Shown: positions 1 to 12,503, counted from the first letter of the stretch. The stretch: DNA of 32,000 nucleotides from Thermosulfurimonas dismutans (GCF_001652585.1 NZ_LWLG01000004.1:83464-115463); one strand, 5' to 3'. Notes: generated from the sequence alone by a model not told the origin. Program-made: numbers and translations.

Positions 1-760
1 CATCTCCTGGGTCGGTCAAAAACTTTATAAAAAATTCAGGGAGCTTTTGCGGAAATCTTGCAGGATGAGGTTTTACACCTACTATTTTACAACACCTTAA
101 ATATTGCGAATTACTTTCAGTATTTGGTATCTCAAGTAGGTTAGAAGGGATTGCTCCTCCCTTATTTTCAGAAAAGCGTTTACTTATGTTGTGTCCGGAA
201 GGCCTTTTTTTGGGAGAATAATATTTTTCACTATTCTGAAGAAGAATTTTCATTCTTTCAGAATAAGGAACTAGTACTTTAGTAACATTTGCTTTGGGAA
301 AATCGGATTTTGATAACCACCATATAGTATTAACAGCATCTTTAACACGAATTTTGCGTTTGTTGACCCATTCTATAGGAGATGGAAGTTTAGATGGATT
401 ATACCAAAAAAATTCTTCTGCTAAATTCCATCCCTGTTCATCGCAAAGTCTTATAAGAAGTCTATAGTTATAAAGTGAACGTACAGGTCTCCCTTTAAGA
501 TAAACTCCTCCGAGGTCAAGTACAAAACTACCTGTTTTTTTTAATACTCTCTTTACTTCAATGGTAAAATTTAAAAGCCAATCTATATATTCATTTTGAT
601 CTACATTGCCGTAATCTTTTTGACGTTGTAATGGAAATGGAGGTGAAGTTATTACAAGATCTATCGATTCTTCTGGTAGGAATTTAAGTAAACTCAAAGC
701 ATCTCCTACATAAGCTTCCCCTAAACGCGTTTTATACAACAATTTGAACGAAGATTTCAT
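1..760 (-). CDS. DNA methyltransferase, beta-class (motif IV before motif I), probably N4-cytosine specific. Partial: the 3' end lies left of the window.
   Basis: Not in the supplied ORF track because it runs off the edge. Hand translation of the - strand from ATG 760-758 gives 253 uninterrupted codons: MKSSFKLLYKTRLGEAYVGDALSLLKFLPEESIDLVITSPPFPLQRQKDYGNVDQNEYIDWLL...VKPHPARFPQKLPEFFIKFLTDPGD. DLVITSPPF is the catalytic (S/D)PP(F/Y) motif. FLTDPGD at the window edge looks like the start of the AdoMet-binding motif I. The SPPF form is typical of m4C enzymes. The start overlaps the stop of the upstream gene (ATGA at 757-760). Confidence 0.85.
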   Translation of the reverse strand, partial: MKSSFKLLYKTRLGEAYVGDALSLLKFLPEESIDLVITSPPFPLQRQKDYGNVDQNEYIDWLLNFTIEVKRVLKKTGSFVLDLGGVYLKGRPVRSLYNYRLLIRLCDEQGWNLAEEFFWYNPSKLPSPIEWVNKRKIRVKDAVNTIWWLSKSDFPKANVTKVLVPYSERMKILLQNSEKYYSPKKRPSGHNISKRFSENKGGAIPSNLLEIPNTESNSQYLRCCKIVGVKPHPARFPQKLPEFFIKFLTDPGD

Positions 761-2226
761 AAATTCTCCTCTAATCTCCAAATCCAGCTTGACATTATTT
801 TCCAAAATACAGTCACAGCAAAATATACCTCTTTATCTTTCATCTTAATTTGTTCCATTCCATTGATATATCTCTGGGGATCCTGCATACCAATAATATA
901 AGCAACCCATTTCCGAGCTTCTTCATCAGTCAAAAGATCTAACATTTCTTCGAGTCTAAATTTTCCTGTCTGGCTTAATGCCCATGCTATTCCTGCTCTT
1001 TCTAATTCATTACTTTCTGAAAATTTTTTTATTATTTCAAAAGTAAATTGTCGAGCAAGTTTACTTAAAGCCCTAGCAGCTTCAATTTGTATATTTTTTT
1101 CAGTGGCATTAAAAGCTTCAATGAGTGCATCTATAGCTCTTTTGTTGCTCAGTTCTCCAAGAGCCCAAGCCGCTCCAGCACGTATTTCTGCATCTTGCTT
1201 CTTATCTAAAAGAATTTCTATTAACATTTGGCAAGAAGCATCATTATTAATTTCTCCTAATATTATCACAGCTTCTAATCTGCATTCTAAAGAATCATTT
1301 GTTAAGCATTGTTTAATAAATTCATATCCAATATCATTTCCTTGTCGAAATAGACTTGCGGCTGCTTCAAGTTTTATAAGGAAATGTTCATATTGATCTT
1401 TAAGTTTCTTAACAAGAAGATCAGTAATCTCGGAAGAATGAAAAAAAGCAAGGGCTTTTATAGCAGCATATTTATTAGTTAATAATGAACTAGAGAGCCA
1501 CTTTATAAAATCTTCTTCTGAAAATAGCCTCTCACATGGCAAAGTTGAGGTTACAGGAACTACAGAAGCTATGATCTGATTTTTAGTAATCTTTTCACCT
1601 TCTTTGACCAAAGGCTTCAATCTTTTGTTTTGCTTCCAAAGTTTTAAAGGTATAATTCTTCCGTTACTTTCTTTTCGATATTTCAACCGATCAGACTCAA
1701 TTGATATAACAGTCCCGGCTGCCGAAGCAATACTTGCCGGCCATTGTATTCTCATCTCAAAACCTTCTTCTGCTCCTTTTGGTTGGGTTAAAATGGTAAG
1801 ATTGTTTTGGTGGGCTAATCGTAAATCTCTAACAGACACATATTGAATAGGACCGTCTATTTCCCAAGATAATGGATTATTTCCTATTTGTTTGCATGCA
1901 ACAAATGCAACAAAATCGTCATCTTTTAAGCCATAATCCCATTTCCGATTTTGATTAGATTCAGAATGAGACATAGAAATTTCAAGTTTACTTTTTGCTC
2001 TACATTCAATACATCTTCCGCATTTTATACAAAGCAAATCAGGAACTCTAATGCGTTTAATTTTTATCTTTTTCCAAATTTTAAAGCTCATTGATCCTCG
2101 TTCTAATTCAATAGGCTTATGTTCTAACTTTTTTAAATGATCAAAGATAGCTATGGTTCCTGTTGCGCCAAGAGAAATTTTTTTTAAAAAACTCTCATCA
2201 GATTTAAATGCCTTTCTATTCGCCAT
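757..2226 (-). CDS. 489-aa protein with an N-terminal Cys-cluster/nuclease-like domain and C-terminal HEAT (PBS-lyase type) repeats. Candidate endonuclease or effector partner of the methyltransferase.
   Basis: Track ORF. The N-terminus has RVPDLLCIKCGRCIECRAKSK, which reads as PD...ExK-like residues interleaved with a CX2CX2CX2C cluster. The C-terminal half has repeated HEAT_2-like units (AEIRAGAAWALGELSNKRAIDALIEAF, IQIEAARALSKLA, ERAGIAWALSQTG). It is AT-rich like the methyltransferase and its stop overlaps the methyltransferase start by 4 nt. Confidence 0.7.
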   Translation of the reverse strand: MANRKAFKSDESFLKKISLGATGTIAIFDHLKKLEHKPIELERGSMSFKIWKKIKIKRIRVPDLLCIKCGRCIECRAKSKLEISMSHSESNQNRKWDYGLKDDDFVAFVACKQIGNNPLSWEIDGPIQYVSVRDLRLAHQNNLTILTQPKGAEEGFEMRIQWPASIASAAGTVISIESDRLKYRKESNGRIIPLKLWKQNKRLKPLVKEGEKITKNQIIASVVPVTSTLPCERLFSEEDFIKWLSSSLLTNKYAAIKALAFFHSSEITDLLVKKLKDQYEHFLIKLEAAASLFRQGNDIGYEFIKQCLTNDSLECRLEAVIILGEINNDASCQMLIEILLDKKQDAEIRAGAAWALGELSNKRAIDALIEAFNATEKNIQIEAARALSKLARQFTFEIIKKFSESNELERAGIAWALSQTGKFRLEEMLDLLTDEEARKWVAYIIGMQDPQRYINGMEQIKMKDKEVYFAVTVFWKIMSSWIWRLEENL

Positions 2227-2274
2227 CTTATGATACTCCTTTTTTAGTACGCATTCTCAATAAGATGCGAGTTT

Positions 2275-2910
2275 TTAGTACTTCTTGATCTTCTGGCACA
2301 CCACGCCCACGATTTCGTGCTCGTCGGTCAATTCGATTTCCGGGTATTTTGGATTCAGGGGGCGGAGGATCCGCTTGTCGCCGTAAACCTTGAGTTGCCT
2401 CAGCACGGCCTCGCCCCTGCCGTTGCACGCCACCACGTAGCTCCCGGAGATGGGCCTGCGGGTGGGGTCCACCACAATGATGTCCTCCTCCGTGAACTCG
2501 GGCTCCATGGAGTCGTCGTTGACTCTCAGGGCGAAGGCTCGCGGGCTCGCAGGGATCACCTCCACCCAGTCCCAGTGCTCCTCAGAGGCGCGGTCGGCCA
2601 CCTTGAGGCCGTGGGAAGAGAGCTCTGTAGCTCCCCAGGTTTTGATCCAGCTCCAGGGGACCACCGGCACCTTCTCAACCCTCCTCACCTCAAGCCCCGC
2701 GGCCTCGGCAACCTCCTCAAAGGGCACCCCGAGGCCCAGGGCCAGCTTCTTCAGCGTTTCCACCTTGGGCTTTCGCTCGCCACGCTCAAGGAGCCGGATG
2801 TACTTCTCCGAGAGCCCGCTCCGCTTCGCGAGCTGGTTTATGGAGAGCCCCGCCTCCTCCCGCTTCCTGCGCACCCATTCGCCGAAGCTCACAGCCACAC
2901 CTCCTGACAT
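2275..2910 (-). CDS. CI/LexA-like repressor (XRE helix-turn-helix plus S24 peptidase autocleavage domain)
   Basis: The N-terminus LSINQLAKRSGLSEKYIRLLERGERKP is an XRE HTH. The C-terminus has ALRVNDDSMEPEF (catalytic Ser) and VLRQLKVYG (Lys), the S24 dyad. It is divergent from a Cro-like gene. Confidence 0.9.
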   Translation of the reverse strand: MSGGVAVSFGEWVRRKREEAGLSINQLAKRSGLSEKYIRLLERGERKPKVETLKKLALGLGVPFEEVAEAAGLEVRRVEKVPVVPWSWIKTWGATELSSHGLKVADRASEEHWDWVEVIPASPRAFALRVNDDSMEPEFTEEDIIVVDPTRRPISGSYVVACNGRGEAVLRQLKVYGDKRILRPLNPKYPEIELTDEHEIVGVVCQKIKKY

Positions 2911-2934
2911 TTGTCCTATCCAAAAACTTTTCTC

Positions 2935-2963
2935 TTGACAATTTCGGACTTTTGTCCGATAAT
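2935..2963 (+). promoter_or_regulatory. Sigma70-type promoter P1: TTGACA (2935-2940), 17-nt spacer, GATAAT (2958-2963), with an operator in the spacer
   Basis: Consensus -35 and near-consensus -10 read directly. The predicted start site falls at about 2970, which is the ATG of the Cro-like gene, suggesting a leaderless mRNA. Confidence 0.55.
2944..2959. promoter_or_regulatory. Operator O1, palindrome TCGGAC-TTTT-GTCCGA
   Basis: Perfect 6-bp inverted arms inside the P1 spacer. The same 16-mer family recurs at 3177, 8656 and 8921. Confidence 0.6.
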
Positions 2964-2969
2964 AAAACC

Positions 2970-3206
2970 ATGTCCACCGTTCACTTTAATCCGGAGGTCC
3001 TGAGGAGGCTAAGGGAGGAGATGGGGCTCACCCGCGCCGAGCTTGAGGCCAGAAGCGGCGTGGACCGGGACACCATCTACGCCTGGGAGAGTGGCCGAAG
3101 GACGCCCTCGGCCCGGAGGCTGGCCCAGGTCGCCCAGGCCCTCGGCGCAAGGCTCGACGATTTTTTTGGCCCGTGTTCGGACTTTTGTCCGCAAAAAGAT
3201 GGCTAG
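2970..3206 (+). CDS. Cro-like XRE-family HTH regulator
   Basis: MSTVHFNPEVLRRLREEMGLTRAELEARSGVDRDTIYAWESGRRTPSARRLAQVAQALG is a classic HTH_3 pattern. The track starts it at TTG 2952, but that lies inside the promoter, so ATG 2970 is preferred. Confidence 0.8.
   Translation: MSTVHFNPEVLRRLREEMGLTRAELEARSGVDRDTIYAWESGRRTPSARRLAQVAQALGARLDDFFGPCSDFCPQKDG
3177..3192. promoter_or_regulatory. Operator-like palindrome O2, TCGGAC-TTTT-GTCCGc
   Basis: 11 of 12 arm positions match O1. It sits 6 nt upstream of the repO-like ATG (3199), which has no Shine-Dalgarno sequence. Confidence 0.5.
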
Positions 3207-4071
3207 CCCCCAGGTGGAAAACGGCTACACCAGGATCGCGAACGAGCTCCTGGAGGCCCTCTGCCGGGCCAGGCTCGGGAGCCGGGAGCTCAAGGTAGTG
3301 CTGGCGGTGGTGAGGCTCACATACGGCTTTTTGCGCAAAGAAAACACCATCTCCCTGGGAAAGCTTGCGGAAATGACGGGGTTGAGAAGAGAGAGGCTCT
3401 CAGAAGTGGTCAAAGCCCTTGAGCGGAAAAATGTCCTGCGGGTCAGCAAGGAAAATGGCCGGCTGATCCTGGGACTGCAAAAAGACTACTCCAAGTGGAC
3501 GGGAGGGGTGTCCCAAAAACGGGGTACCCCAAAATTGGGACTGTCCCAAAAAAGGGTGTCCCAAAAACGGGGAACAGGGTGTCCCAATTTTGGGGAACAG
3601 GGTGTCCCAAAAAAGGGGAACACCCACACCCCTCAATCCCTTGAGTCTCAAGCGTTTCACGGCCCCCTAAAGAAAATATATAAAGAAAACTTTAAAGAAA
3701 CATCATCTATCTACAGAGAGGACGACTTCAAAGAAGTGATCTCCAAGTGGGAGGAGGTCTTCGGGGAGGCGTTTCCCCTTGAGAGGGCGCCGGAGAGCGT
3801 GAGGGCGGCGGACTTCATGCTTTACCTTCACGAGGCCGGGAGGCTCCCCGCGGTGAAGCGCCCCTCGGCCTACCTGAGAAAGCTTGCCGCGAGCGAGCTT
3901 GAGCCTTTCCCGAGCCTCGCCGAGCGGCGGGCCGCGGCCCGGGACGCAGAGGAGCGGATGCGCGAGCTCAACCGCCAACAGCTCGCCAAGCTCTACGCCC
4001 GCATGATGGCCGAGGGCTGGCCGGTCGAGGTCCCCGAGGAGCTCAGGCCCCTTGTGGCCCAAACCCAATAG
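3199..4071 (+). CDS. Phage replication protein O-like initiator
   Basis: MASPQVENGYTRIANELLEALCRARLGSRELKVVLAVVRLTYGFLRKENTISLGKLAEMTGL matches the Phage_rep_O N-terminal winged-helix pattern. A low-complexity linker is encoded by the iteron DNA. The track ORF begins upstream at 3043, and the internal Met at 3199 is chosen instead. Confidence 0.8.
   Translation: MASPQVENGYTRIANELLEALCRARLGSRELKVVLAVVRLTYGFLRKENTISLGKLAEMTGLRRERLSEVVKALERKNVLRVSKENGRLILGLQKDYSKWTGGVSQKRGTPKLGLSQKRVSQKRGTGCPNFGEQGVPKKGNTHTPQSLESQAFHGPLKKIYKENFKETSSIYREDDFKEVISKWEEVFGEAFPLERAPESVRAADFMLYLHEAGRLPAVKRPSAYLRKLAASELEPFPSLAERRAAARDAEERMRELNRQQLAKLYARMMAEGWPVEVPEELRPLVAQTQ
3505..3714. repeat. Candidate replication origin: 5-6 iterons (core TGTCCCAAAAA; the last three are tandem 22-23 bp units GGGTGTCCCAAWWWWGGGGAACA) followed by an AT-rich stretch (3668-3714)
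   Basis: TGTCCC cores at 3509, 3542, 3557, 3580 and 3603, plus a variant TACCCCAAAATTGGGA at 3525. Downstream is taaagaaaatatataaagaaaactttaaagaaacatcatc. The architecture mirrors lambda ori inside gene O. Confidence 0.6.
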
Positions 4072-4105
4072 GGGTTAAGTGAAAATTTTCACAAAGGGGG
4101 TAAGC

Positions 4106-4300
4106 ATGGTGGAGCACGAGATCAAAAAGCTCATGGCGGAGTTCGGGCCGGAGGCTGTGCTCAGCGCCGTCTCCGAGGCCCTCTCCCGCTGGGTGAGGGT
4201 GACCGGCAGGTGTCTTCTGACCGGGCGCAGGCTTGCCCACGAGAAGATCTGCGGCTACTGCCGCCGGTGCCCGGTGAAGCCCCTTGAGAGGAGGGCCTGA
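4106..4300 (+). CDS. Small hypothetical protein (64 aa) with a C-terminal CxxCxxC cluster
   Basis: GGGGG Shine-Dalgarno 6 nt before ATG 4106. The stop overlaps the rusA start. Contains EKICGYCRRCP. Confidence 0.5.
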   Translation: MVEHEIKKLMAEFGPEAVLSAVSEALSRWVRVTGRCLLTGRRLAHEKICGYCRRCPVKPLERRA

Positions 4301-4791
4301 TGCTTGCGGTCTTCGTGCGAGGGGTGCCCAGGCCCCAGGGGCGGCCGCGGATCGTGCGCTTCGCGAACGGGAAGGCCGGGCTCAAGGACCCGGAGGCCAG
4401 CCGGGACTGGAAGAACTACGTGCGGATGTGCGTGGCCGAGAGGGTGGCCGAGCCCCTCTCCGGGCCGGTGGCCCTGGAGCTCTGGTTCTACCTTCCAGTG
4501 CCGAAAAGTTTCTCAAGGAAAAAGCGTCTTGCGGCCCTTTCCGGGGAGATCCTACCGGCCAAAAAGCCCGACCTCGACAACCTGGTCAAGGCGGTGCTCG
4601 ACGCCATCCTGGGGGTGGCCGTGCTCGACGACCGGCAGATCGTGGAGCTCCGGGCTGGAAAGCTCTACGGGGCCGTGCCCGGGGTGGAAATCGTCGTAAA
4701 GGAGCCCGGGGAGTCCAGCTCAAAATCCCTTGAAAGGAGGAACGGATGCCGAGCTACACCCACGAGTTTGCTATCCGCTGCGTGGCTCTGA
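4300..4791 (+). CDS. rusA: RusA-family Holliday junction resolvase with a long C-terminal extension
   Basis: GRPRIV...LELWFYLPVPKS...KKPDLDNLVKAVLDAILGVAVLDDRQIVEL carries the RusA catalytic Asp motifs. Confidence 0.85.
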   Translation: MLAVFVRGVPRPQGRPRIVRFANGKAGLKDPEASRDWKNYVRMCVAERVAEPLSGPVALELWFYLPVPKSFSRKKRLAALSGEILPAKKPDLDNLVKAVLDAILGVAVLDDRQIVELRAGKLYGAVPGVEIVVKEPGESSSKSLERRNGCRATPTSLLSAAWL

Positions 4792-4976
4792 AGGAAAAGA
4801 GCGACCAGAACGTAGTGGAGGTCAAGCTTGAGATGGTGGTGCGGGACACGGAGGACCTCTCCTTCATCATGGACCTGGTGCGCCTCAAGCAGTTGCCCCT
4901 GGTCACGGTGAGCTTCCACTCGCCGCAACAGAGGCTTCCCCTGGAGGGAAAGGTTGAGTCTCGCCCTGCTAATTAG
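4746..4976 (+). CDS. Hypothetical protein (76 aa)
   Basis: Strong Shine-Dalgarno (GAAAGGAGGAACGG-ATG). No recognisable motif. Confidence 0.5.
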   Translation: MPSYTHEFAIRCVALKEKSDQNVVEVKLEMVVRDTEDLSFIMDLVRLKQLPLVTVSFHSPQQRLPLEGKVESRPAN

Positions 4977-5565
4977 CCTCGCCCTCCTTGCGGCGGCCCC
5001 GGCCCTGGCCGAGGACCCGGTGTCCTTCATCGTGGCCCGGAGCCCGGAGCTCTCCGAGCTTTCAAGCTTCAACCGGAGCCGGCTCTCCAACCTCACGGTC
5101 AAGCTCCGGGGCACGGTAAAGCAGGGCCAGGAGACGCTCTCCGGCCTCACGGCGGAGGAGAGGGCCCGGGTCGGCTACGACCTCAGGCTCATCGCCGAGC
5201 TCCCGCTTTTCTCGCCCAAGGAGCGCCTGGAGATGAGGCTCAGGGAGCTCAGGCTCAGGCGGAGGGTGCGCCAGGAGGCCGCTAGAGCTGTGGCCCGCTA
5301 CCGGAGCCTCAAAAAGACCGTGGCCAGGAGGCAGGCCCTGGTCGCCGCCGTCCGGGAGGAGTGCCTCTGGCTCAAGCGCAGGGTGGAGGCCGGGCTTGAG
5401 CCCTCGGAGCGGGTCATCTCCTGCGTGAAGGAGCTTGAGGGCCAGAAGGAGAAGCTCGAGACGCTCCGGGAGGAGCTCTCCGAGGCCCTTGAGACCGTGC
5501 TCTCAATGGTGGGGCCGGGGGACAGGGAGCGCCTCAAGGAGATCCTGGATGCGGAGGATCGTTAG
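4954..5565 (+). CDS. Secreted coiled-coil protein with a signal peptide
   Basis: TTG start preceded by GGAGGG. The N-terminus LALLISLALLAAAPALA-EDP looks like a signal peptide with an AxA cleavage site. The rest is Arg/Glu/Leu-rich heptad-like sequence. Confidence 0.55.
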   Translation: MSLALLISLALLAAAPALAEDPVSFIVARSPELSELSSFNRSRLSNLTVKLRGTVKQGQETLSGLTAEERARVGYDLRLIAELPLFSPKERLEMRLRELRLRRRVRQEAARAVARYRSLKKTVARRQALVAAVREECLWLKRRVEAGLEPSERVISCVKELEGQKEKLETLREELSEALETVLSMVGPGDRERLKEILDAEDR

Positions 5566-6184
5566 CTCGTTTCAGAGGATCGGCCGGAGGTTCTACGGCA
5601 CGGTCTCGGTTAAGGCCTTCGGCCGCAGGGTGGATCACTTCCGGCTCCGGGCCGGGATGAGCGTGCTCATCGAGGGCGGGCCGCTTTCCGGGAAAACGGC
5701 CTTCCTGCGGCGCCTGGCCTCTCAGCTCGCCGAGCTCCGGGAGCCCGTAATCTTCATTGATGCCACTTCCCCAGTGACCAAGTGGCTCTCCGAGGTCACG
5801 CCCCCGGTGCCCCTGAGCGCGAGGAAGGCCCTCTCCTGGAGGCTTGCGAACCTGCCGGAGCGGTTCTACCTCCTTCTCGACAACGCCGAACGGGTGGCCG
5901 ACGGCCAGAAGCTGGAGGTGGTGCTGGAGCTCCTGGCCAGGGCCCGCACCGCGGTGGTGGCCGGGCGATCCTACTCCTCCCTCCACCCAAGGCTCCAGGC
6001 CCGCCTGCGTGAGGCCAAGGTGGTCTCCCTGGGTTGCGGGGCCGACACCTTCGACGCCACCTACGTGCTCGTAGCCGTGCTCATCATCTTGGTGGCGCTC
6101 TCCGGGATGCACCACCTGGTGCTCCTGGCCGCGGCCGTGCGCTACCTCTTCCAGGGGATCAGGATCGGGGGCCGAAGGATATGA
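5549..6184 (+). CDS. P-loop ATPase with a C-terminal transmembrane anchor
   Basis: Walker A is IEGGPLSGKTAFL and Walker B-like is FYLLLDNAE. The C-terminal hydrophobic helix is VLVAVLIILVALSGMHHLVLLAAAV. Internal ATG 5549 has an AAGGAGA Shine-Dalgarno, and the track ORF starts earlier at 5435. Confidence 0.6.
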   Translation: MRRIVSSFQRIGRRFYGTVSVKAFGRRVDHFRLRAGMSVLIEGGPLSGKTAFLRRLASQLAELREPVIFIDATSPVTKWLSEVTPPVPLSARKALSWRLANLPERFYLLLDNAERVADGQKLEVVLELLARARTAVVAGRSYSSLHPRLQARLREAKVVSLGCGADTFDATYVLVAVLIILVALSGMHHLVLLAAAVRYLFQGIRIGGRRI

Positions 6185-6777
6185 CCTGGCCGAGCCACAT
6201 CCTCATGGGGATCGCGCTTGCCAAGGGCTTCGACCTTTCGCTTCCCTGGTGCGTGGCCGGGAGCCTGTTTCCGGATCTTGCCGAGATGCTTGCGAGGCGC
6301 ATCGTGGTCCGGGGGAAAGCGGTCTTCGTCGGCCTCCCCCAGATCGCCCACCGCACCTACACCCACTCTCTGCTCTTCGCCGGGCTTTGCCTCCTTGCAG
6401 GCTGGGGAATCTTCCCGATCCGGAGCTTCTTCGCCGGGGTGCTCTTTGGGCACCTGCTTCTCGACGCCCTCACCGTGATGGGCGTTCCGGTGGTTGACGG
6501 GAGGCACCGCAGGGTTACCCTTTTCGGAGGGAAGATCCGCACGGGGTCGCTCGCCGAACTCGTGGCGGTGCTGGCCCTCGCGTTCACCACCTACGCCGTG
6601 GCCCCAGCCGTGAAGGTCGGTGGCCTTGAGGACCTCTACCAGCAGGGGGTGATAGACAGGTATGAGTACGAAAAGAGAAAGAAGGCCCTTTTCGATCTTC
6701 TTCTTTGGCGCCACTCTGGCCCTCCTCCTTCTCGGCACCTTCCTCCCTCTGTGGAGCGCCTACTCGAAGAGCCTTGA
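6181..6777 (+). CDS. DUF457/YdjM-type membrane-bound metal-dependent hydrolase fused to a SHOCT domain
   Basis: MTWPSHILMG, FPDL, HRTYTHSLLF and GHLLLDALTVMGVP are YdjM-family signatures. LEDLYQQGVIDRYEYEKRKKALF matches SHOCT. ATGA overlap with the upstream ATPase gene. Confidence 0.7.
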   Translation: MTWPSHILMGIALAKGFDLSLPWCVAGSLFPDLAEMLARRIVVRGKAVFVGLPQIAHRTYTHSLLFAGLCLLAGWGIFPIRSFFAGVLFGHLLLDALTVMGVPVVDGRHRRVTLFGGKIRTGSLAELVAVLALAFTTYAVAPAVKVGGLEDLYQQGVIDRYEYEKRKKALFDLLLWRHSGPPPSRHLPPSVERLLEEP

Positions 6778-7201
6778 GGCCCGGGTGGTTAAGGTTTACG
6801 ACGGGGACACGGTAACGGTTCTGCTGGGTGGGCGGCGCGAGAGGGTCCGTCTCATCGGGATAGACTGCCCGGAGCTCCGTCAAAGGCCCTGGGGAAAGCG
6901 CGCCAGGGACTTTCTGAGGCGGCTCGTCCTGCACCGCACCGTGCGCCTGGAGCTGGATGTTGATCCCTGGGATCGCTACGGGCGCCTCCTGGCCTATGTG
7001 TGGCTTGACGGCGAGCTCGTGAACGAGACCCTGGTCAGGGAGGGGCTCTGCCTGATCTACACCGTGCCGCCCAACGTGAAGCATGCGGAGAGGTTCCGGG
7101 AGGCCCAGAGGTGGGCCAGGGAGCACGGCCGGGGCTTCTGGGCCGAGGGCGGGCTCTCGGAAACGCCCTACCAGTGGCGCAGGCGCCACCGCAGGCACTA
7201 G
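6662..7201 (+). CDS. Membrane-anchored staphylococcal-nuclease (SNase/thermonuclease) homologue
   Basis: N-terminal TM helix FSIFFFGATLALLLLGTFLPLW. Then VVKVYDGDTVTV...RVRLIGIDCPE...DRYGRLLAYVWLDGELVNETLVREGL, the SNase fold signature. Confidence 0.85.
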   Translation: MSTKRERRPFSIFFFGATLALLLLGTFLPLWSAYSKSLEARVVKVYDGDTVTVLLGGRRERVRLIGIDCPELRQRPWGKRARDFLRRLVLHRTVRLELDVDPWDRYGRLLAYVWLDGELVNETLVREGLCLIYTVPPNVKHAERFREAQRWAREHGRGFWAEGGLSETPYQWRRRHRRH

Positions 7202-7545
7202 CCTCCGCCTTCCATCCCCCACCCACCCGCCCTTCCTGCGGCCCTTGCGGGCCGGGGGCCTCGCCCCGCCTAAGCCGGGGGGCGGGCCTCGGCCCCACCG
7301 GGCGATCCGGCCCGTCCGGGTGGGCTCGCCCGCACCTGGGGTCCGGCCCGAAAAAGAAATCTAACCCACCGAAAATGCGCCTCTAAACGGCCCATATTTG
7401 GCCTCTAAGAGGATTTTTTTGGCCAATAGTATCGAACATATCGGGGCGAGAAAATCGATTCTGGGGCGAATCTGAGCGGATTTTTCACCGGGCTTGTCCT
7501 GGGACCACCTAACGGCTAGGGCCACCTAACCGGGTCATGATTTGA

Positions 7546-8640
7546 GTTGAGTTTCTGGCTCGCCACAGCCTCCCCCGCCACCGGCGCCCCCCTCCCCCGA
7601 AGTGCTCGGCCCCCTCCCCCCGCCGCGCCGTCGGCCTCGCCCCCGCTCCAGGGGGAGGGGGCCTGCGCTGTCTTTGAGGCTCGGTGCCTCCGGTGCCGTG
7701 GGAAAGGCTGGAAGCGTCCTGCGGTGGGAAAAGCCCGTGGAATAGAAACCTTCCAGCCTTTCCCCCTCTTTCAGTTGTAGCCCTCCGGCCCCTTATGCGG
7801 CGCAAGGCCTCCGGCCCCTGACGGGGCCTCCGCAAGCTCGCTCCGGGGCTTTGCCCCTCCGCTCGGCCTTGCCCCGCGGGGCCTCCGGGCTGTTCCAAAA
7901 GTGCGGGGTTCGGCTGGGGAAAAAGGCTTTTGGGTTTTTTTGGCCTGGGGGCCTTGGGGCTCTGTGCCTCCGGGGCCTGTGGGTCCGGCCCTTCCGCCTG
8001 CGGTGGGGCCGGCCCGTTAAAAAAACTTTTGGGGGTGTGGCTATGGGCGGCGTTTCTCCCTTGGCTTGCCTTCCGGTTTTTTCGGCGGTTTCGGTCTCGG
8101 CGGTGGCCTTCGGGGGCGGGGCGGTGCTCCGGCGCTCGTCCCGGTCGCTCTCCGGGTTCGTGGCCTGGTGCTGGTTCCCGTCCTGGGGGCTTGCCCGGCG
8201 GTGGGCCTCCTTCTGGGCCGGGCGGCTTCCGGCCGCGTGCCGGGGCGTGGTGGTGCGCCGGGCGCCGTTTCCGGCCTCGGGGTGGGTGGTTTCCGTGCCG
8301 GTGCTCCCTCGGGTGGGGGCGTGCCGTGGTTAGGTTGCCGGGGTGGGCTTCGGCGGCCGGGGGCCGGGTGCTCCGGGTTCTCGGCCCCGCGGTGACGGTC
8401 TGGTTCCCCTCCGGGTTTCTGGCCCAGGCCTTCGCCCTCTCCTGCGGGCTCTCCCCGGCTCGGGCCTTCCGGGCGCCCTCCGGGGGCTTTGCCGTGGTGG
8501 TGCCGGCCTCGGCCCTCTCCTCCGTCCGGCCCCGGTGCGCCTTCTGCGCCCGCCTAGGCCGCTGTGCCGTGGCCTCCCCCGGCCCGGGGTGCGGCTTCCG
8601 CCCCTTCCGGCGCCCGCCCCGCCAGGGCTCCCTCTTCAAA
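7546..8640. other. GC-rich tract with the + strand almost devoid of A. Probably non-coding.
   Basis: Hand count: between 8043 and 8623 the only A residues are at 8043, 8332, 8395, 8426 and 8556. Positions 8044-8331 form a 288-nt run with no A. All track ORFs here overlap in several frames on both strands. Confidence 0.8.
7700..7764. repeat. Perfect 15-bp inverted repeat GGGAAAGGCTGGAAG / CTTCCAGCCTTTCCC with a 35-nt loop
   Basis: Arms at 7700-7714 and 7750-7764, read directly and exactly complementary. Confidence 0.75.
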
Positions 8641-8648
8641 TTGGGGGC

Positions 8649-8677
8649 TTGACATTCGGACAAATGTCCGATAAAAT
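8649..8677 (+). promoter_or_regulatory. Sigma70-type promoter P2: TTGACA (8649-8654), 17-nt spacer, TAAAAT (8672-8677), with an operator in the spacer
   Basis: Read directly. It is followed by a GGGGGTGG Shine-Dalgarno (8693-8700) and ATG 8705. Confidence 0.55.
8656..8671. promoter_or_regulatory. Operator O3, TCGGAC-AAAT-GTCCGA
   Basis: Perfect arms identical to O1, inside the P2 spacer. Confidence 0.6.
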
Positions 8678-8704
8678 GAAGCCAATAAGAGAGGGGGTGG
8701 GACG

Positions 8705-8917
8705 ATGAGAAAAGAAACAAAAAGACTTTTAAAACAGGCTTACAAGGCGGCTATAAGAGCAAGCGAAGAAATGGGAGAGAACTTTTTGAATCCGTGGTTT
8801 TTCTTGGGATACATGGAGTTCAGCGGCTTGAAGGATCTGTCCGGAGACGAGGTTTTTCGCATAATGCGCTGGCTTTGGACCTGGGACAAGAACAGAAACT
8901 CAAAATTTTTTGCCTAG
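8705..8917 (+). CDS. Hypothetical protein (70 aa), first gene of the P2 operon
   Basis: Good promoter and Shine-Dalgarno context. Trp/Phe-rich, noticeably lower GC than its surroundings, no known motif. Confidence 0.55.
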   Translation: MRKETKRLLKQAYKAAIRASEEMGENFLNPWFFLGYMEFSGLKDLSGDEVFRIMRWLWTWDKNRNSKFFA

Positions 8918-8920
8918 TGT

Positions 8921-8936
8921 TCGGACAAAAGTCCGA
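8921..8936. promoter_or_regulatory. Operator-like palindrome O4, TCGGAC-AAAA-GTCCGA
   Basis: Perfect arms. It lies between the stop at 8917 and the AAGGAGG Shine-Dalgarno of the next small gene. Confidence 0.5.
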
Positions 8937-9169: not shown

Positions 9170-9601
9170 ATGAAGCAAGCCAAGCAATCTTTGAGGGTGA
9201 AGCAGACGGACGAGTTCGTGAACCCGGTGACCGGCGAGGTGATCTCGCCTTCGGGCCTGGAGCAGATGCTCCTCAACATGCTCTACGGCCTCTCGAACGT
9301 CCAGAAGTTCTACCTGGTGAACGAGCTCTTGAAGGGGCTCAAGCGCGGGCGGGATCTCCTGCGCAAGAAGCTCCTTGAGGAGCTCGACAACCGGCCAAGG
9401 CAGGAGGGGGAGCTTGTGGCCTACGTGCGGGAGCGGGAGCAGAGGCGGTTTGACGCCAAGGCTTTCGAGCGCGAGCATCCTGAGCTTTACCGAGCCTACC
9501 TTCGGCCGGTGCGCCAAAAAGTCGTAGTGGTGGAGAAGCCGGACCTGGTCTTTGAGATCTCTCGGCCGGAGCTTTCCGCCGCCGAGGACATGCCGCTTTA
9601 G
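9170..9601 (+). CDS. Hypothetical phage-type early protein (143 aa, coiled-coil)
   Basis: Shine-Dalgarno GGAGGGAGAG-ATG. No diagnostic motif. Confidence 0.6.
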   Translation: MKQAKQSLRVKQTDEFVNPVTGEVISPSGLEQMLLNMLYGLSNVQKFYLVNELLKGLKRGRDLLRKKLLEELDNRPRQEGELVAYVREREQRRFDAKAFEREHPELYRAYLRPVRQKVVVVEKPDLVFEISRPELSAAEDMPL

Positions 9602-9611
9602 GAGGTGGAGC

Positions 9612-10124
9612 ATGAAGAGGCTCGGCGAACTCAAGCCCATCAAGGACTTTCGGGAGGAGGAGAGGCAGGCAAGGCTTCCCCAGGGATTCAAGCCCCAGGA
9701 GCAGATCGCCTTGGGCCAGGCCGCGGCCGACGCCCTCATGGACGTGGTGCGCCGGCAGGGGCTCTCCAAGAAGATAGAGGGAAAGGAGTACCTCTTTTAC
9801 GAGGCCTGGCTCACCCTAGGACGGTTTTTCAAATTAACGCCCAAGGTAGAGTGGTCAAAGCCCATTTGGCACGAGGGGCGGGTAATTGCTTGGGAGGCCC
9901 GGGCCGTGGTGGTGGATGAGGAGGGCCGGGAGGTGGCCGCGGCCGAGGCCATGTGCGGGAAGGACGAGAAGGGCTGGGCCAAGCGCCCGGCCTATGCCCT
10001 GCGCTCCATGGCCCAGACCCGGGCCTGCGCCAAGGCCCTGCGCTCCGTGCTTTCCTGGATCGTGGTCTTGGCGGGCTTTGCACCCACCCCTGCAGAGGAA
10101 ATCGAGAATGGAGCTGACGCCTGA
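9612..10124 (+). CDS. Hypothetical protein (170 aa), possibly a Rad52/Sak-like single-strand annealing protein
   Basis: Strong Shine-Dalgarno (TAGGAGGTGGAGC-ATG). The C-terminal SMAQTRACAKALRSVL resembles the A-x-T-x-A-x-K/R-A-L-R helix of phage annealing proteins. The function call is weak. Confidence 0.55.
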   Translation: MKRLGELKPIKDFREEERQARLPQGFKPQEQIALGQAAADALMDVVRRQGLSKKIEGKEYLFYEAWLTLGRFFKLTPKVEWSKPIWHEGRVIAWEARAVVVDEEGREVAAAEAMCGKDEKGWAKRPAYALRSMAQTRACAKALRSVLSWIVVLAGFAPTPAEEIENGADA

Positions 10125-10380: not shown

Positions 10381-11426
10381 AGATCTTGATGCACCTCTGG
10401 CGGCGGGAAAACGGCATCTACTACATCGTTTGGCGGGACCGGGACGGGCGCCAGCGGATGCGCTCCACCCGCACCCGGGACAAGGCTCTCGCCCGCCGCA
10501 TCTTCAACCAGTTCAAGCGCCAGTGGCTCGCCGGAAAGCTGGTGGAGCTCGACCGGGGGCCGAAGGTTCCCTTTGGGCGCTTTGTGGAGGAGTTCCTGCG
10601 CTGGGCCGAGAGCACGCTCAAGCCCGCCACGTCCGAGACCTACCGCCACGCCCTGAAGCACGCCCTGGAGGTCTTCGGGGCCTCGCGGACGCTTGACTCC
10701 ATCAGGAGCCGGGATCTCGACGCCCTTCTCGTCCACCTGCGCCAAAAGGGCCTCTCCCCGGTTTCAGTGAACAAAGTCTTCCGGCACTTGAAGGCCGCTT
10801 TTTCCAAAGCCGTTGAGTGGAGCTACCTGCGGGAGAACCCGGTCAAGAGGGGGAACCCCCTGCGGGTCCAGAGGGAGCTCCCGCGTTTTCTCTCCCAGGG
10901 GGAGATCCTGCGGCTCCTCCGGGCCATCGAGGACCCGCACTTCCGAGCCTTCGTGAGGTTCGCCCTCTTTTCGGGCCTGAGAAGGAGCGAGCTCCTCGCC
11001 CTCACTTGGGAGCACCTGGACCTCAAACGGGGCTTCGTTCGGGTTCCGCTGGGGAAGGGCACGGAGGAGCGGTTTCTGCCCATTTCAAGCCGCCTGCGGG
11101 AGGTGATCGAGGACCTGAGAGCCTTGGGGGTCAAGGGCAGGCTCTTTCCTTGGAGCAGGAGCTATGTGAGCCACCGGTTCCAGAGGTATGCTCGGAAAGC
11201 CGGGCTTTCCGGGGTTCGGCTCCACGACCTGCGGCACACCTTCGCCAGCCACCTGGTCATGGCCGGAGTGGACATCCGCACGGTGCAGAAGCTAATGGGC
11301 CACGCGGACATCAAGGCCACCATGGTTTACGCCCAGCTGAGCCCGGACCACCTGCGGGAAGCCATGGAGCGGCTTAACCTCGGGCAGGAGCCGCACTTGC
11401 GGGTGATAGAAGGCGGTCGGAAGTAA
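10377..11426 (+). CDS. int: Tyrosine recombinase / phage integrase
   Basis: ALFSGLRRSELLAL (Arg I), HDLRHTFASHLVMAGVDIRTVQKLMGHADIKATMVYAQL (H-x-x-R ... H ... Y catalytic set). Confidence 0.95.
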   Translation: MKILMHLWRRENGIYYIVWRDRDGRQRMRSTRTRDKALARRIFNQFKRQWLAGKLVELDRGPKVPFGRFVEEFLRWAESTLKPATSETYRHALKHALEVFGASRTLDSIRSRDLDALLVHLRQKGLSPVSVNKVFRHLKAAFSKAVEWSYLRENPVKRGNPLRVQRELPRFLSQGEILRLLRAIEDPHFRAFVRFALFSGLRRSELLALTWEHLDLKRGFVRVPLGKGTEERFLPISSRLREVIEDLRALGVKGRLFPWSRSYVSHRFQRYARKAGLSGVRLHDLRHTFASHLVMAGVDIRTVQKLMGHADIKATMVYAQLSPDHLREAMERLNLGQEPHLRVIEGGRK

Positions 11427-11487
11427 ATTTCGCTTGCAGTTTGCTTGCACCAGAATGAAAAGGCTTAATTTTCTAAAGGACTTGAGC

Positions 11488-11529
11488 GGATTAGGAATCC
11501 CGTGCTCTATCCGCCTGAGCTACGGGGGC
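11488..11529 (-). pseudogene. Truncated tRNA-Arg(CCT): 5' half only (acceptor 5' strand, D-arm, anticodon stem 5' strand, loop, and 3 nt of the 3' stem strand)
   Basis: The - strand reads GCCCCCG-TA-GCTC-AGGCGGATA-GAGC-A-CGGGA-TTCCTAA-TCC. The tRNA-like sequence then stops: the next bases are GC where CG is expected, and there is no T-arm or acceptor 3' strand downstream. Confidence 0.6.
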
Positions 11530-11681
11530 AGGGCTTTAAATACTCTAATTTTTCAAAGAATTTATCACGGCTCATTTATTAGGGCAAGGGCGATTAAAAT
11601 CGTACCAAAAGCCTATGCTAACTTGCGAAAGACCTTTAAGCATGTTAATTTTCGCAAATAGCAAAAAATTCTGCTGCTCAA

Positions 11682-11757
11682 GCCGGTGTAGCTCAGCAGG
11701 TAGAGCAGTGGATTCGTAATCCACAGGTCGGGGGTTCGAGTCCCCCCGCCGGCTCCA
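11682..11757 (+). tRNA. tRNA-Thr (anticodon CGT), CCA encoded
   Basis: GCCGGTG-TA-GCTC-AGCAGGTA-GAGC-A-GTGGA-TTCGTAA-TCCAC-AGGTC-GGGGG-TTCGAGT-CCCCC-CGCCGGC-T-CCA folds as a complete cloverleaf. Confidence 0.95.
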
Positions 11758-11777
11758 TTGAGGGGCTTATTCTTTCA

Positions 11778-12503
11778 ATGTTTATCAGGCTTTTCGTCCT
11801 ATTCCTTTTCATTTCCGGAGTTACGGGTTGTGGAAAGAAAGGCCCTCCTCTGCCCCCAGAAGCGGTTAGACCTGAACCTCCAAAGGATTTCCGAATTCGG
11901 CTCGAACCCTTCTTTGCCGAACTTTCTTTTAAAATTCCAGTCGAAAACATCCGAGGTCAGGCCCTCTCCCGGATCAAGGCCTTTCGGATCGAAAAACGGC
12001 GCTACCCTGCCGAAAATCCGCGCCTTACCATGGTTCAGACCCTCAAAATCCCCTTTCGGGGGAAACTGAGCGAAGAAGAAAGATTTTATTATCGCGACCG
12101 AAACCTGAGACCGGGTTTTTGCTACGAATACCGAGTCTCGGCGATAAAGGGTTTCCGGTCCGAAAGTGACTGGACTCCTCCCCAAAAATTTTGCTGGTTC
12201 ACGCCTCCCAAGACGCCTGAGGGTTTTGAGATCAAGACCCTGCCTCTTCACCAAGTCTTCCTCACCTGGAAACCGGTAACTCGGGATCTGAACGACTTCG
12301 CACTCCCGGGCAAACCCCTCTATCGAATATACCGACGCTCTTCTAGAGAAACTCGAGTCTTCCCACCAATCCCGGATAATGCCTTTTACGATCTTTCCGT
12401 CCAGGCAGGAGAAACCTATTGCTACTCCGTAGAGCCTCTTTTACCATATTACGGCACCCTGATTCCGGGCTTCAGAACCCCGGAGATTTGCGCAAGACCG
12501 TAA
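11778..12503 (+). CDS. Lipoprotein with an LptM/YifL-like N-terminus (CGKKGPPLPP) and beta-rich FN3-like repeats
   Basis: Signal peptide plus lipobox FISGVTG-C. The CGKKGP motif is typical of the small lipoprotein commonly found upstream of lysA. Confidence 0.7.
   Translation: MFIRLFVLFLFISGVTGCGKKGPPLPPEAVRPEPPKDFRIRLEPFFAELSFKIPVENIRGQALSRIKAFRIEKRRYPAENPRLTMVQTLKIPFRGKLSEEERFYYRDRNLRPGFCYEYRVSAIKGFRSESDWTPPQKFCWFTPPKTPEGFEIKTLPLHQVFLTWKPVTRDLNDFALPGKPLYRIYRRSSRETRVFPPIPDNAFYDLSVQAGETYCYSVEPLLPYYGTLIPGFRTPEICARP

Follow-up and report, generated by a model that had tools for sequence, protein, structure and literature searches.

Mini-plasmids and small integrative elements that encode neither capsid nor relaxase nor secretion functions are common, and their persistence and spread are largely unexplained. 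Among the arrangements closest to the one described here, lambdoid phages have Q and the lysis genes located after O and the RusA region, and the Tra/TraB systems of Streptomyces pIJ101 and of actinomycete integrative and conjugative elements (AICEs) serve small replicons without a relaxase or type IV secretion system (T4SS), with one membrane P-loop ATPase, Spd membrane proteins and kil-kor control. In Campylobacter jejuni, exported DNases (Dns of CJIE1, CJE0566 of CJIE2 and CJE1441 of CJIE4) sharply cut natural transformation, according to the passage of PMC3995785 that cites Gaasbeek 2009 and 2010. Here we describe an overlapping gene cassette (4954-7201) in a 32,000-nt stretch of Thermosulfurimonas dismutans DNA (GCF_001652585.1, NZ_LWLG01000004.1:83464-115463). 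The whole stretch is called the window, and positions are counted from its first letter. As judged by its gene content, the carrier of the cassette is a ~9-kb lambda-like integrated element with an S24 repressor, RepO with iterons, RusA, Xis and Int.

The cassette encodes a secreted coiled-coil protein, a P-loop NTPase, a YdjM (DUF457) protein and a staphylococcal-type nuclease (SNase). The genes for the first three, hereafter the trio, are by sequence comparison the universal core of a co-inherited, predicted envelope module. This module is the hallmark of a group that appears not to have been described so far, made up of mini-plasmids and small temperate elements. The trio spans two replicon types that are unrelated by their gene content: lambda-like elements, which have a tyrosine integrase, and Rep_3 plasmids, which have a resolvase.

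Gene layout and recurrence of the trio

The first-pass annotation had described four consecutive genes overlapping by 17, 4 and 116 nt, with a signal peptide or transmembrane segment in every product, and both statements hold. Sequence-level analysis of open reading frames (ORFs) over 4954-7201 gave exactly these overlaps between the genes, all on the plus strand, for the coiled-coil protein (4954..5565, TTG start, 203 aa), the P-loop NTPase (5549..6184, 211 aa), YdjM/DUF457 (6181..6777, 198 aa, with an ATGA start overlapping the P-loop stop codon) and SNase (6662..7201, 179 aa). A GGAGG-like (Shine-Dalgarno-like) motif lies upstream of all four starts. Kyte-Doolittle hydrophobic segments were found in each product: residues 1-27 of the coiled-coil protein, 163-198 of the P-loop protein, 62-105 and 122-146 of YdjM and 9-33 of SNase. 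Topology is thus given here from hydropathy, sequence pattern and one AlphaFold2 (AF2) model, that of the P-loop protein, in which a hairpin was predicted.

Conserved co-occurrence elsewhere had been set beforehand as the check on which the cassette depended; the trio recurs in about 30 loci of 24-65% GC, and its members co-diverge. The YdjM protein has 14 cluster-level relatives in 5.8e9 proteins, and the same genes stand in the same order in 13 non-redundant related lambda-like loci (labels such as L004 denote individual loci). The order in these relatives runs repressor, (cro), RepO, RusA or VRR_NUC, a small ORF, a ~200-aa signal-peptide protein, the 211-aa P-loop protein and YdjM; two Nitrospirota loci from metagenome-assembled genomes (MAGs) and a Thermodesulfatator MAG contig share this layout. 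Gene calls had suggested that SNase was variable cargo. This was rejected, since tblastn and hidden Markov model (HMM) searches find SNase, or a remnant of it in L007 and L008, after YdjM in nearly all main-clade loci. At this position L006 and L013 have no SNase gene, and in L014 the gene stands at a distance of 4 kb. The remnant is a decayed-looking 62-aa SNase fragment behind YdjM (L007 2511-2696, L008 2355-2540), which indicates that a locus can lose the nuclease and keep the trio. In L004, RepO is 33% identical to that of the window and the P-loop protein 60%, with VRR_NUC in place of RusA; as measured by such comparisons, the backbone genes are more mosaic than the trio.

Other genes are found within and around the module. 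Toxin-antitoxin (TA) pairs (UPF0175/DUF3368, RelB/ParE-like) lie inside it or just behind it at L016 1831-2581, L024 8425-8957 and L007 2693-3459, the UPF0175/DUF3368 pair of L016 between YdjM and SNase and the TA pair of L024 between the coiled-coil and YdjM genes. At the level of gene order, the module is tolerant of insertions at gene junctions. Downstream of YdjM in L013 (11128-16468) are genes for a 1470-aa ATPase-like and a 312-aa protein, and a large ATPase plus a TIR-like gene is among the defence-type neighbours. L004 carries a SIR2_2 protein gene (409-2190) and L028 type III restriction-modification (R-M)-like genes (2022-6247, recognised by eye from sequence only).

A more distant branch was reached with a tighter subgroup of distant P-loop members, used as seed for metagenomic contig scans. 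It comprises 18 metagenomic loci of 24-40% GC, with P-loop proteins ~20% identical. A YdjM homologue lies just downstream of the P-loop gene in 17 of the 18, and the gene order is P-loop, coiled-coil, YdjM: the ~220-aa ORF between the two has a weak coiled-coil HMM match in four loci and a signal-peptide-like start in the loci inspected. Six contigs of this branch (L019, L020, L021, L025, L035 and L036) have exact terminal repeats of 99 or 127 nt, consistent with complete circular genomes of 6.3-9.6 kb. A Rep_3 initiator was confirmed in L019, L035 and L036, with L025 as a fourth case that carries a question mark, and candidate Rep proteins of 237-252 aa were found in L020 and L021. All six encode a small serine recombinase (resolvase) and the trio and little else; in mini-plasmids down to 6.3 kb the trio takes up ~30% of the genome. 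Their low GC content (27-40%) indicates hosts probably other than that of the window. A signal-peptide Endonuclease_NS (PF01223, E 1e-34 to 1e-38), of a fold unrelated to SNase, is present in three of the six. Directly behind YdjM in L019 (8256-8819) lies a gene for a protein with a prepilin-type methylation motif (GFTLFE..., PF07963, E 4e-4).

In the loci examined the trio occurs only on small mobile replicons. Over 19 loci, pairwise distances of the three core proteins were correlated with r = 0.87-0.94, and 0 of 2000 Mantel permutations reached the observed values; the main clade alone gave 0.86-0.95. The nuclease had also been counted as part of the cassette, which holds in so far as an exported nuclease is usually linked to the trio; it comes in two unrelated folds.

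Predicted properties of the products

The SNase and YdjM domains are known families, and the P-loop and coiled-coil proteins are unannotated families. The P-loop protein (5549-6184) carries a Walker A motif (GGPLSGKT, G43-T50) and a Walker B motif (LLLDN, D111), and gives weak matches only to AAA/STAND-type families in Pfam. Its AF2 model, with a predicted local distance difference test (pLDDT) score of 77.5, consists of a basic three-stranded N-terminal sheet (1-33), an AAA+-type core (38-160) and a C-terminal helical hairpin (165-203). The Walker motifs, the hydrophobic stretch 163-198 and this hairpin agree with its earlier description as a membrane-anchored P-loop ATPase. In alignments, the hairpin and the invariant tail LAAAxRYLFQGxRxGG are the most conserved part of the family. 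A simple reading of the model is that the hairpin would hold the protein at the inner face of the membrane, so that the NTPase domain and the basic tail would lie on the cytoplasmic side.

An exhaustive profile search of 1.84e9 proteins gave 56 representatives of this family, nearly all of 170-240 aa and aligned end to end. Over 26 members, Pfam matched AAA_22 in 21, Bac_DnaA weakly in 4, and nSTAND/NACHT-type families weakly. The nearest Foldseek matches of the model were DnaA, Orc1/Cdc6, Hda, RFC and Lon, at a template-modelling score (TM) of ~0.44 and among many AAA+ proteins. Profile searches against the PDB gave RecA first with the A1 alignment and KaiC, Cdc6 and SLFN11 first with A4, VCP also matching weakly; a match to Avs4 was seen at E ~1e-3. 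This pattern suggests a generic AAA+-type core. Two distant members of A4 (P0032 and P0034) are without the Walker A lysine (GGAEE-REK and GGGLSFKDE), and some copies may not hydrolyse NTP.

More specific identities were considered. A DnaA/Hda-like protein, suggested by motif resemblance, is not backed by the sequence profiles, and no lid domain appears in the AF2 model. The protein was not taken for a STAND NTPase, having only 211 aa, with just the transmembrane hairpin and no sensor repeats after the core, and STAND-type Pfam matches that were all below cut-off. As for inovirus pI/Zot (PF05707), Zot is absent from the top 25 Pfam families over the 26 members, and the accompanying replication genes are O-type or Rep_3.

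The coiled-coil protein (4954-5565) begins with a signal peptide ending in ...APALA (AxA end) directly before EDP, followed by the motif DPVxFIVxxNP(E/D)L, the sequence ...ELPLFSP... and long helices. The motif is conserved in an alignment of 15 orthologues; these also have the signal peptide, and no lipobox was seen in them. The family profile search retrieved 47 clusters, none of them annotated. A TolC/OEP (PF02321) repeat was considered and rejected: OEP matched 8 of 15 members with a best E of 0.002, all below cut-off, hhalign against a hand-typed E. coli TolC sequence gave a probability of 1.7%, and the family profile recovered no OEP-annotated protein. In its length of ~200 aa, its hydrophobic N-terminus, its two cysteines and a coiled coil that would lie in the periplasm, the protein is reminiscent of the i-spanin Rz. 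The spanin likeness is in outline only; PHROGs gave no match for the protein, and no search was made for an embedded Rz1-like ORF.

YdjM (6181-6777) matches PF04307 with 40.9 bits against a gathering cut-off of 29. Residues H6, D32, H57, H62, H91 and D95 are invariant in 13 sequences, and the same residues are found in the copies on the distant plasmids. At the C-terminus, a helix pair resembling SHOCT scores 23.1 bits with PF09851, below the cut-off of 27, with weak or faint matches in homologues; in the same region the motif G-[VI]-ID-[RK]-x-EY is kept in all YdjM copies. In the first-pass label of a DUF457-SHOCT membrane hydrolase, the YdjM/DUF457 part is above cut-off and is retained, and the SHOCT part, below threshold, is tentative. 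We know of no member of the YdjM family with demonstrated activity. Profile comparison (HHsearch) links the domain to Zn phospholipase C, HET-C and S1-P1 nuclease, with a relation to membrane-disrupting phospholipase C, and the domain is also found as an RHS toxin tip (PMC8557891). From its Pfam membership and that one paper, YdjM would be a polytopic membrane metallo-hydrolase of the phospholipase-C/P1-nuclease superfamily. For SHOCT-like domains, a role in keeping proteins at the inner face of the membrane has been put forward (PMC11237479); a role in oligomerisation was not borne out by experiment (PMC3581485). A preprint tying 'DUF457' to a cA4-gated membrane pore (Cap1) proved irrelevant, the domain there being DUF4579 and the match a prefix artefact.

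SNase (6662-7201) matches PF00565 over profile positions 1-106 of 107 with 87.3 bits (cut-off 21, E 1.1e-24). The catalytic motifs YDGDT, RLIGIDCPE and DRYGRLLAYV are intact, and the PHROGs match is a nuclease. Against the NucI equivalog model NF047694 of NCBIfam it reached 93 bits, the cut-off being 250; by these scores SNase is a family relative and not an orthologue. Its N-terminus has a basic (K/R-rich) n-region, a hydrophobic core and an AxA-like end, and the longer SNase forms have conserved cysteine pairs beyond the predicted cleavage site, which fits export. It probably serves as a Sec signal peptide that is cleaved off, less probably as an anchor, and the nuclease is best read as Sec-exported. 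Of the membrane-tethered staphylococcal-type nuclease initially proposed, the nuclease stands by Pfam and the anchor is less likely, given the signal-peptide-like N-terminus with its AxA-like end.

The start of the long SNase form is an ATG inside the 'DRYEYE' codons of YdjM and falls at the same place in seven loci, including ones where YdjM is only 57% identical. Within the resulting 116-nt overlap (6662..6777, plus strand), which joins the end of YdjM to the SNase signal peptide, the SNase and YdjM frames were open in six of six loci tested and the third frame was closed in all six. Among close relatives the YdjM frame is 76-95% identical in amino acids and the SNase frame 58-63%, with signal-peptide character kept; across relatives the overlap measures 116-128 nt. 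As judged from these reading frames, the 116-nt overlap is a conserved case of dual coding. The starts chosen by gene callers in relatives vary and are often shorter. A short start at GTG 6785, which would leave neither an overlap nor a hydrophobic N-terminus, was rejected on the conservation of the long start and the signal peptide in all relatives.

The carrier element and its expression context

The cassette lies inside an island of 65% GC (~2.3-11.4 kb), flanked by DNA of 34% GC on the left and 53% GC on the right. A protein encoded in the flanking DNA falls into one 90% cluster with a protein from a Thermodesulfobacteriaceae MAG, by which the host probably belongs to this family. Divergent from the cassette, on the minus strand, is a gene for a CI/LexA-like repressor (2275..2910; Pfam HTH_3 1.3e-15 and Peptidase_S24 1.1e-21), whose orthologues occupy the same position in L001, L002, L006, L013 and L014. 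A plus-strand sigma-70-like promoter (2935..2963; TTGACA-17-GATAAT, 11/12) is overlapped by the operator TTCGGACTTTTGTCCG (2943-2958), one of four copies of the palindrome TTCGGAC(N4)GTCCG(AA) at 2943-2958, 3176-3191, 8655-8670 and ~8919-8936. The first long gene of the rightward operon encodes the lambda O-type replication initiator RepO (3202..4071, plus strand; Phage_rep_O 7e-24, also PHROGs); its longest ORF call begins at 3043, and 3202 is the ATG just past the second operator. Four ~23-bp iterons (GGGTGTCCCAAAAAnGGGGAACA) lie at 3502-3622 within the RepO gene and are probably the replication origin of the element, comparable to the lambda origin inside gene O. The RusA Holliday-junction resolvase follows (4300..4791, plus strand; Pfam 1e-29, PHROG 140 3.4e-43).

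Between RusA and the four genes lies a further member of the block, so that the delimitation of the cassette to four genes, real as these are, was too narrow. This gene (4746..4976, plus strand) encodes a small soluble protein of 76 aa without family, in which no hydrophobic segment was detected by Kyte-Doolittle analysis. It is preceded by AGGAGG 8 nt 5' of its ATG, and orthologues 55-95% identical are present in nine loci. Because it shares 46 nt with the 3' end of RusA and 23 nt with the coiled-coil gene, the overlapping chain begins earlier than the four genes. From RepO onward every gene abuts or overlaps its neighbour; dense packing is a trait of the whole operon and not of the cassette alone.

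The element contains two strong rightward sigma-70-like promoters only (2935-2963 and 8649-8677), and a copy of the palindromic operator overlaps each. On the plus strand between 2963 and 8649, a consensus scan detected no terminator-like site and predicted no internal promoter. The cassette would therefore be the distal part of a repressor-controlled rightward operon with RepO and RusA, as far as consensus scans tell. The second operon, separated from the cassette by a 1.4-kb non-coding stretch, comprises two small ORFs followed by genes for proteins of 143 and 170 aa, for an HTH_17 excisionase and for a tyrosine integrase, with a tRNA-Thr downstream. One repressor probably controls both the replication/cassette and the recombination/xis/int operons. 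Lying under an operator-covered promoter, the cassette would be silent in the lysogen and be expressed, along with excision and replication, once the LexA-like repressor is inactivated.

In agreement with the first-pass annotation, virion and lysis genes could not be recognised in the element: Pfam and PHROGs found no virion or lysis family in its ORFs, no lysozyme, amidase or peptidase family in any of them, and no recognisable holin family. No relatives were found among GenBank phages or 2.9 million viral contigs (IMG/VR), and with no Zot signal either, a small-virus origin was rejected.

Some further features of the element were observed. Between the cassette and the second operator-controlled promoter lies an A-poor stretch of ~1.1 kb (7560-8650, strongest at 7781-8680), the plus strand of which has 1-7% A and 72-77% GC, with an AT skew to -0.9. 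Stop codons are impossible there in all six frames, so the '403-aa' minus-strand ORF (7509-8720) is no evidence of a gene. A-poor stretches occupy the same relative place in L003 (5141-6140), L002 (9781-10100) and L007 (3721-4060); identity is 73% over 600 nt with L003 and 90% over 115 nt with L001 (window ~7555-7669). The stretch gave no Rfam match, no tandem array and nothing interpretable on folding analysis.

At the left, the repressor gene (65% GC) is followed immediately, on its own strand, by a gene for a 489-aa HEAT-repeat protein (757-2226, minus strand, ~33% GC). The HEAT-repeat protein matches HEAT-ARM_XIII of PADLOC at 2.5e-10, and its gene has the position of the lambda rexAB slot. 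This gene may be a moron or a defence gene that is expressed in lysogeny, and the left end of the element may be found beyond it. At the right, 255 nt separate the end of the integrase gene from the 5' end of a downstream tRNA-Thr(CGT) gene on the same strand (11682-11757), an orientation unusual for tRNA-targeting integrases; no direct repeat of at least 11 nt that could mark att sites was found between the tRNA-Thr side (11380-11800) and the left 3 kb (1-3000). The 143-aa and 170-aa proteins (9170-9601 and 9612-10124) have homologues in the Rep_3 plasmid branch, with the motif ...AETRALKRAIETLFG (L019 1986-3112; L028 9582-10907), and weak PHROGs matches (RecE-like C-terminus; phrog_19042). 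They may be a recombination pair travelling with the trio.

Possible roles and comparison with known systems

We tentatively favour, with less than even confidence, a role of the trio as a core envelope module in the service of its own element: after derepression it would release or transfer replicated DNA, or remodel the membrane. This role is preferred because the trio is invariant while the adjoining slots (TA pairs, SIR2, R-M-like genes, large ATPases) vary, because it occupies the late/lysis position of a lambda-type operon in elements without capsid or lysis genes, and because 6.3-kb mini-plasmids spend ~30% of their genome on it. The trio would act in the last step of the induced cycle, in place of the missing capsid and lysis genes, and the membrane would be disturbed or remodelled so that replicated element DNA is released or transferred. 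The NTPase with its basic N-terminus could be a cytoplasmic motor or switch and YdjM a lipid- or nucleic-acid-cleaving effector, with the coiled-coil protein reaching into the periplasm; the exported nuclease might remove DNA of the host or of competitors that lies unprotected outside the cytoplasm.

Several points weigh against this proposal. Pfam and PHROGs reveal no peptidoglycan hydrolase, leaving classical lysis unexplained. A constitutive release or lysis device would presumably be costly on tiny plasmids unless tightly regulated, and an exported non-specific nuclease would be expected to destroy released naked element DNA unless this were protected. The promoter and terminator scan used a sigma-70 consensus in a thermophile, and internal promoters could be missed. 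The phospholipase assignment of YdjM is drawn from Pfam membership and a single paper, the AF2 model of the protein being of low confidence (pLDDT 65) and giving no Foldseek match in the PDB with E < 1. Finally, the defence-type neighbours (SIR2, type III R-M-like genes, TA pairs, TIR-like gene) fit a defence island equally well.

The trio may instead belong to defence or exclusion, as the first-pass annotation had suggested; this is the main rival, and only somewhat less likely than the favoured role. The membrane NTPase would be a switch driving a phospholipase-like effector in abortive infection (Abi) and the exported nuclease would degrade incoming phage, plasmid or transforming DNA in the periplasm, so that the host is protected and the element is not displaced, or cured by transformation. 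The trio as sole cargo of 6-7 kb Rep_3 plasmids recalls Abi or R-M plasmids, and the neighbours just named, the large ATPase plus the TIR-like gene included, point the same way, as do the weak nSTAND/NACHT-type matches in the P-loop family and the recruitment of two unrelated exported nucleases. The YdjM domain at RHS toxin tips (PMC8557891) also agrees with it, and the DNases of CJIE1, CJIE2 and CJIE4 offer a precedent in blocking natural transformation, as reported in the cited passage of PMC3995785. However, the module is placed in a repressor-controlled operon with replication genes, with no internal promoter found, and the slot after the repressor that would be expressed in lysogeny is taken by the HEAT-repeat ORF (757-2226). 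The P-loop protein is without a sensor domain, the trio was not seen outside small elements and is less variable than their backbones, and PADLOC gave no system match.

The proximity to replication genes would also be expected of a membrane tether or organiser for replication or segregation, where an AAA+ protein acts with RepO or Rep_3 at the membrane and the rest is accessory. The module does sit on small replicons lacking par genes, downstream of or adjoining the initiator gene, and replication-initiator AAA+ proteins are the top Foldseek matches of the P-loop protein, which has a basic N-terminus and a family with weak Bac_DnaA matches in 4 of 26 members. Nevertheless DnaA is not preferred by the sequence profile, in which KaiC, Cdc6, SLFN and VCP all score weakly, the resemblance in fold is a generic one (TM ~0.44) and Walker A is degenerate in some members, and the exported coiled-coil protein, the phospholipase C (PLC)-type hydrolase and the exported nucleases would be left unexplained; we consider such a tether improbable. 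Still less credible, to the point of being very hard to maintain, is a decayed lysis or late remnant of a prophage, or a chance adjacency of membrane genes. The place after RusA mimics the lambda late/lysis position and structural genes are lacking, but the ORFs are intact, with conserved overlaps and catalytic residues in ~30 loci of 24-65% GC, the core proteins co-diverge, complete circular genomes carry the trio, the dual-coding overlap of 116-128 nt is maintained, and no endolysin or holin family was matched.

The favoured role in release or transfer can be stated more specifically, in a form that we hold to be unlikely as it stands: the trio would be a minimal envelope apparatus letting capsid-less elements and 6-10 kb plasmids exit the cell or reach a neighbour. 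For instance, the anchored NTPase could use its basic N-terminus for loading replicated DNA at the membrane. The envelope could then be opened, or made to bud, by the PLC-type hydrolase together with the coiled coil in the periplasm, and the nuclease would remove unprotected DNA. If true, this would be a new transfer mode, unlike conjugation, transduction and known vesicle-forming plasmids. Whether in release and transfer or in membrane defence, the module is a concrete candidate for how such elements, here in thermophilic and subsurface bacteria, persist and spread. It would also offer a first functional context for the widespread YdjM/DUF457 and for two unannotated families, and its dual-coding overlap shows cleanly that long overlapping genes occur naturally in a bacterial mobile element.

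That the combination is not a named system, as had been suspected, agrees with searches of PADLOC and NCBIfam, which yielded no matching system. In PADLOC-DB v2 no system was matched; SNase hit the generic C3a212 (2.6e-24), further hits were to a ZorA coiled-coil stretch (6.5e-5) and mad8 (2e-4), and YdjM had none. The combination thus appears to lie outside the known lysis, secretion, filamentous-phage and defence systems tested, and would be new by exclusion and not by mechanism.

Among defence systems, the STAND/AAA anti-phage proteins (Avs and others) share with it a P-loop NTPase plus predicted membrane and nuclease effectors, in line with the weak nSTAND/NACHT matches. The P-loop protein is, in contrast, very small, with a membrane hairpin and no sensor repeats, and its PADLOC matches are no better than E ~1e-4 on short stretches. 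E. coli YdjM, an SOS-regulated inner-membrane protein, and the protein of the window are alike in true PF04307 membership, conserved His/Asp residues and a link of induction to DNA damage (reported through LexA there, expected through the S24 repressor here); the SHOCT-like tail, the overlap with a nuclease gene and the two dedicated partner families distinguish the latter. Like a lambdoid lysis cassette, the module stands at the distal end of a rightward operon after O and RusA/nin, with all products targeted to the envelope. It differs in the addition of an NTPase and a predicted metallo-hydrolase; no peptidoglycan hydrolase was found, and neither a holin nor an outer-membrane lipoprotein partner was recognised.

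The pIJ101-type transfer systems resemble the module in their 6-10 kb replicons, in combining one membrane ATPase with small membrane proteins and in repressor control. TraB is, however, an FtsK-type hexameric pump with N-terminal transmembrane segments and a DNA-recognition domain, whereas the 211-aa protein here has an AAA core and a C-terminal hairpin; no homology between the two was detected, and transfer would be purely hypothetical. The Campylobacter CJIE DNases are likewise exported non-specific nucleases on integrated mobile elements; they are single genes without NTPase, YdjM or coiled-coil partners, unlike the nuclease gene here, which is nested in that of YdjM and belongs to a repressor-controlled operon. 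Taken together, these comparisons suggest that the module would work most like exported-DNase exclusion borne by a mobile genetic element, with membrane parts added, or like a minimal transfer or release device, and that it is a member of neither.

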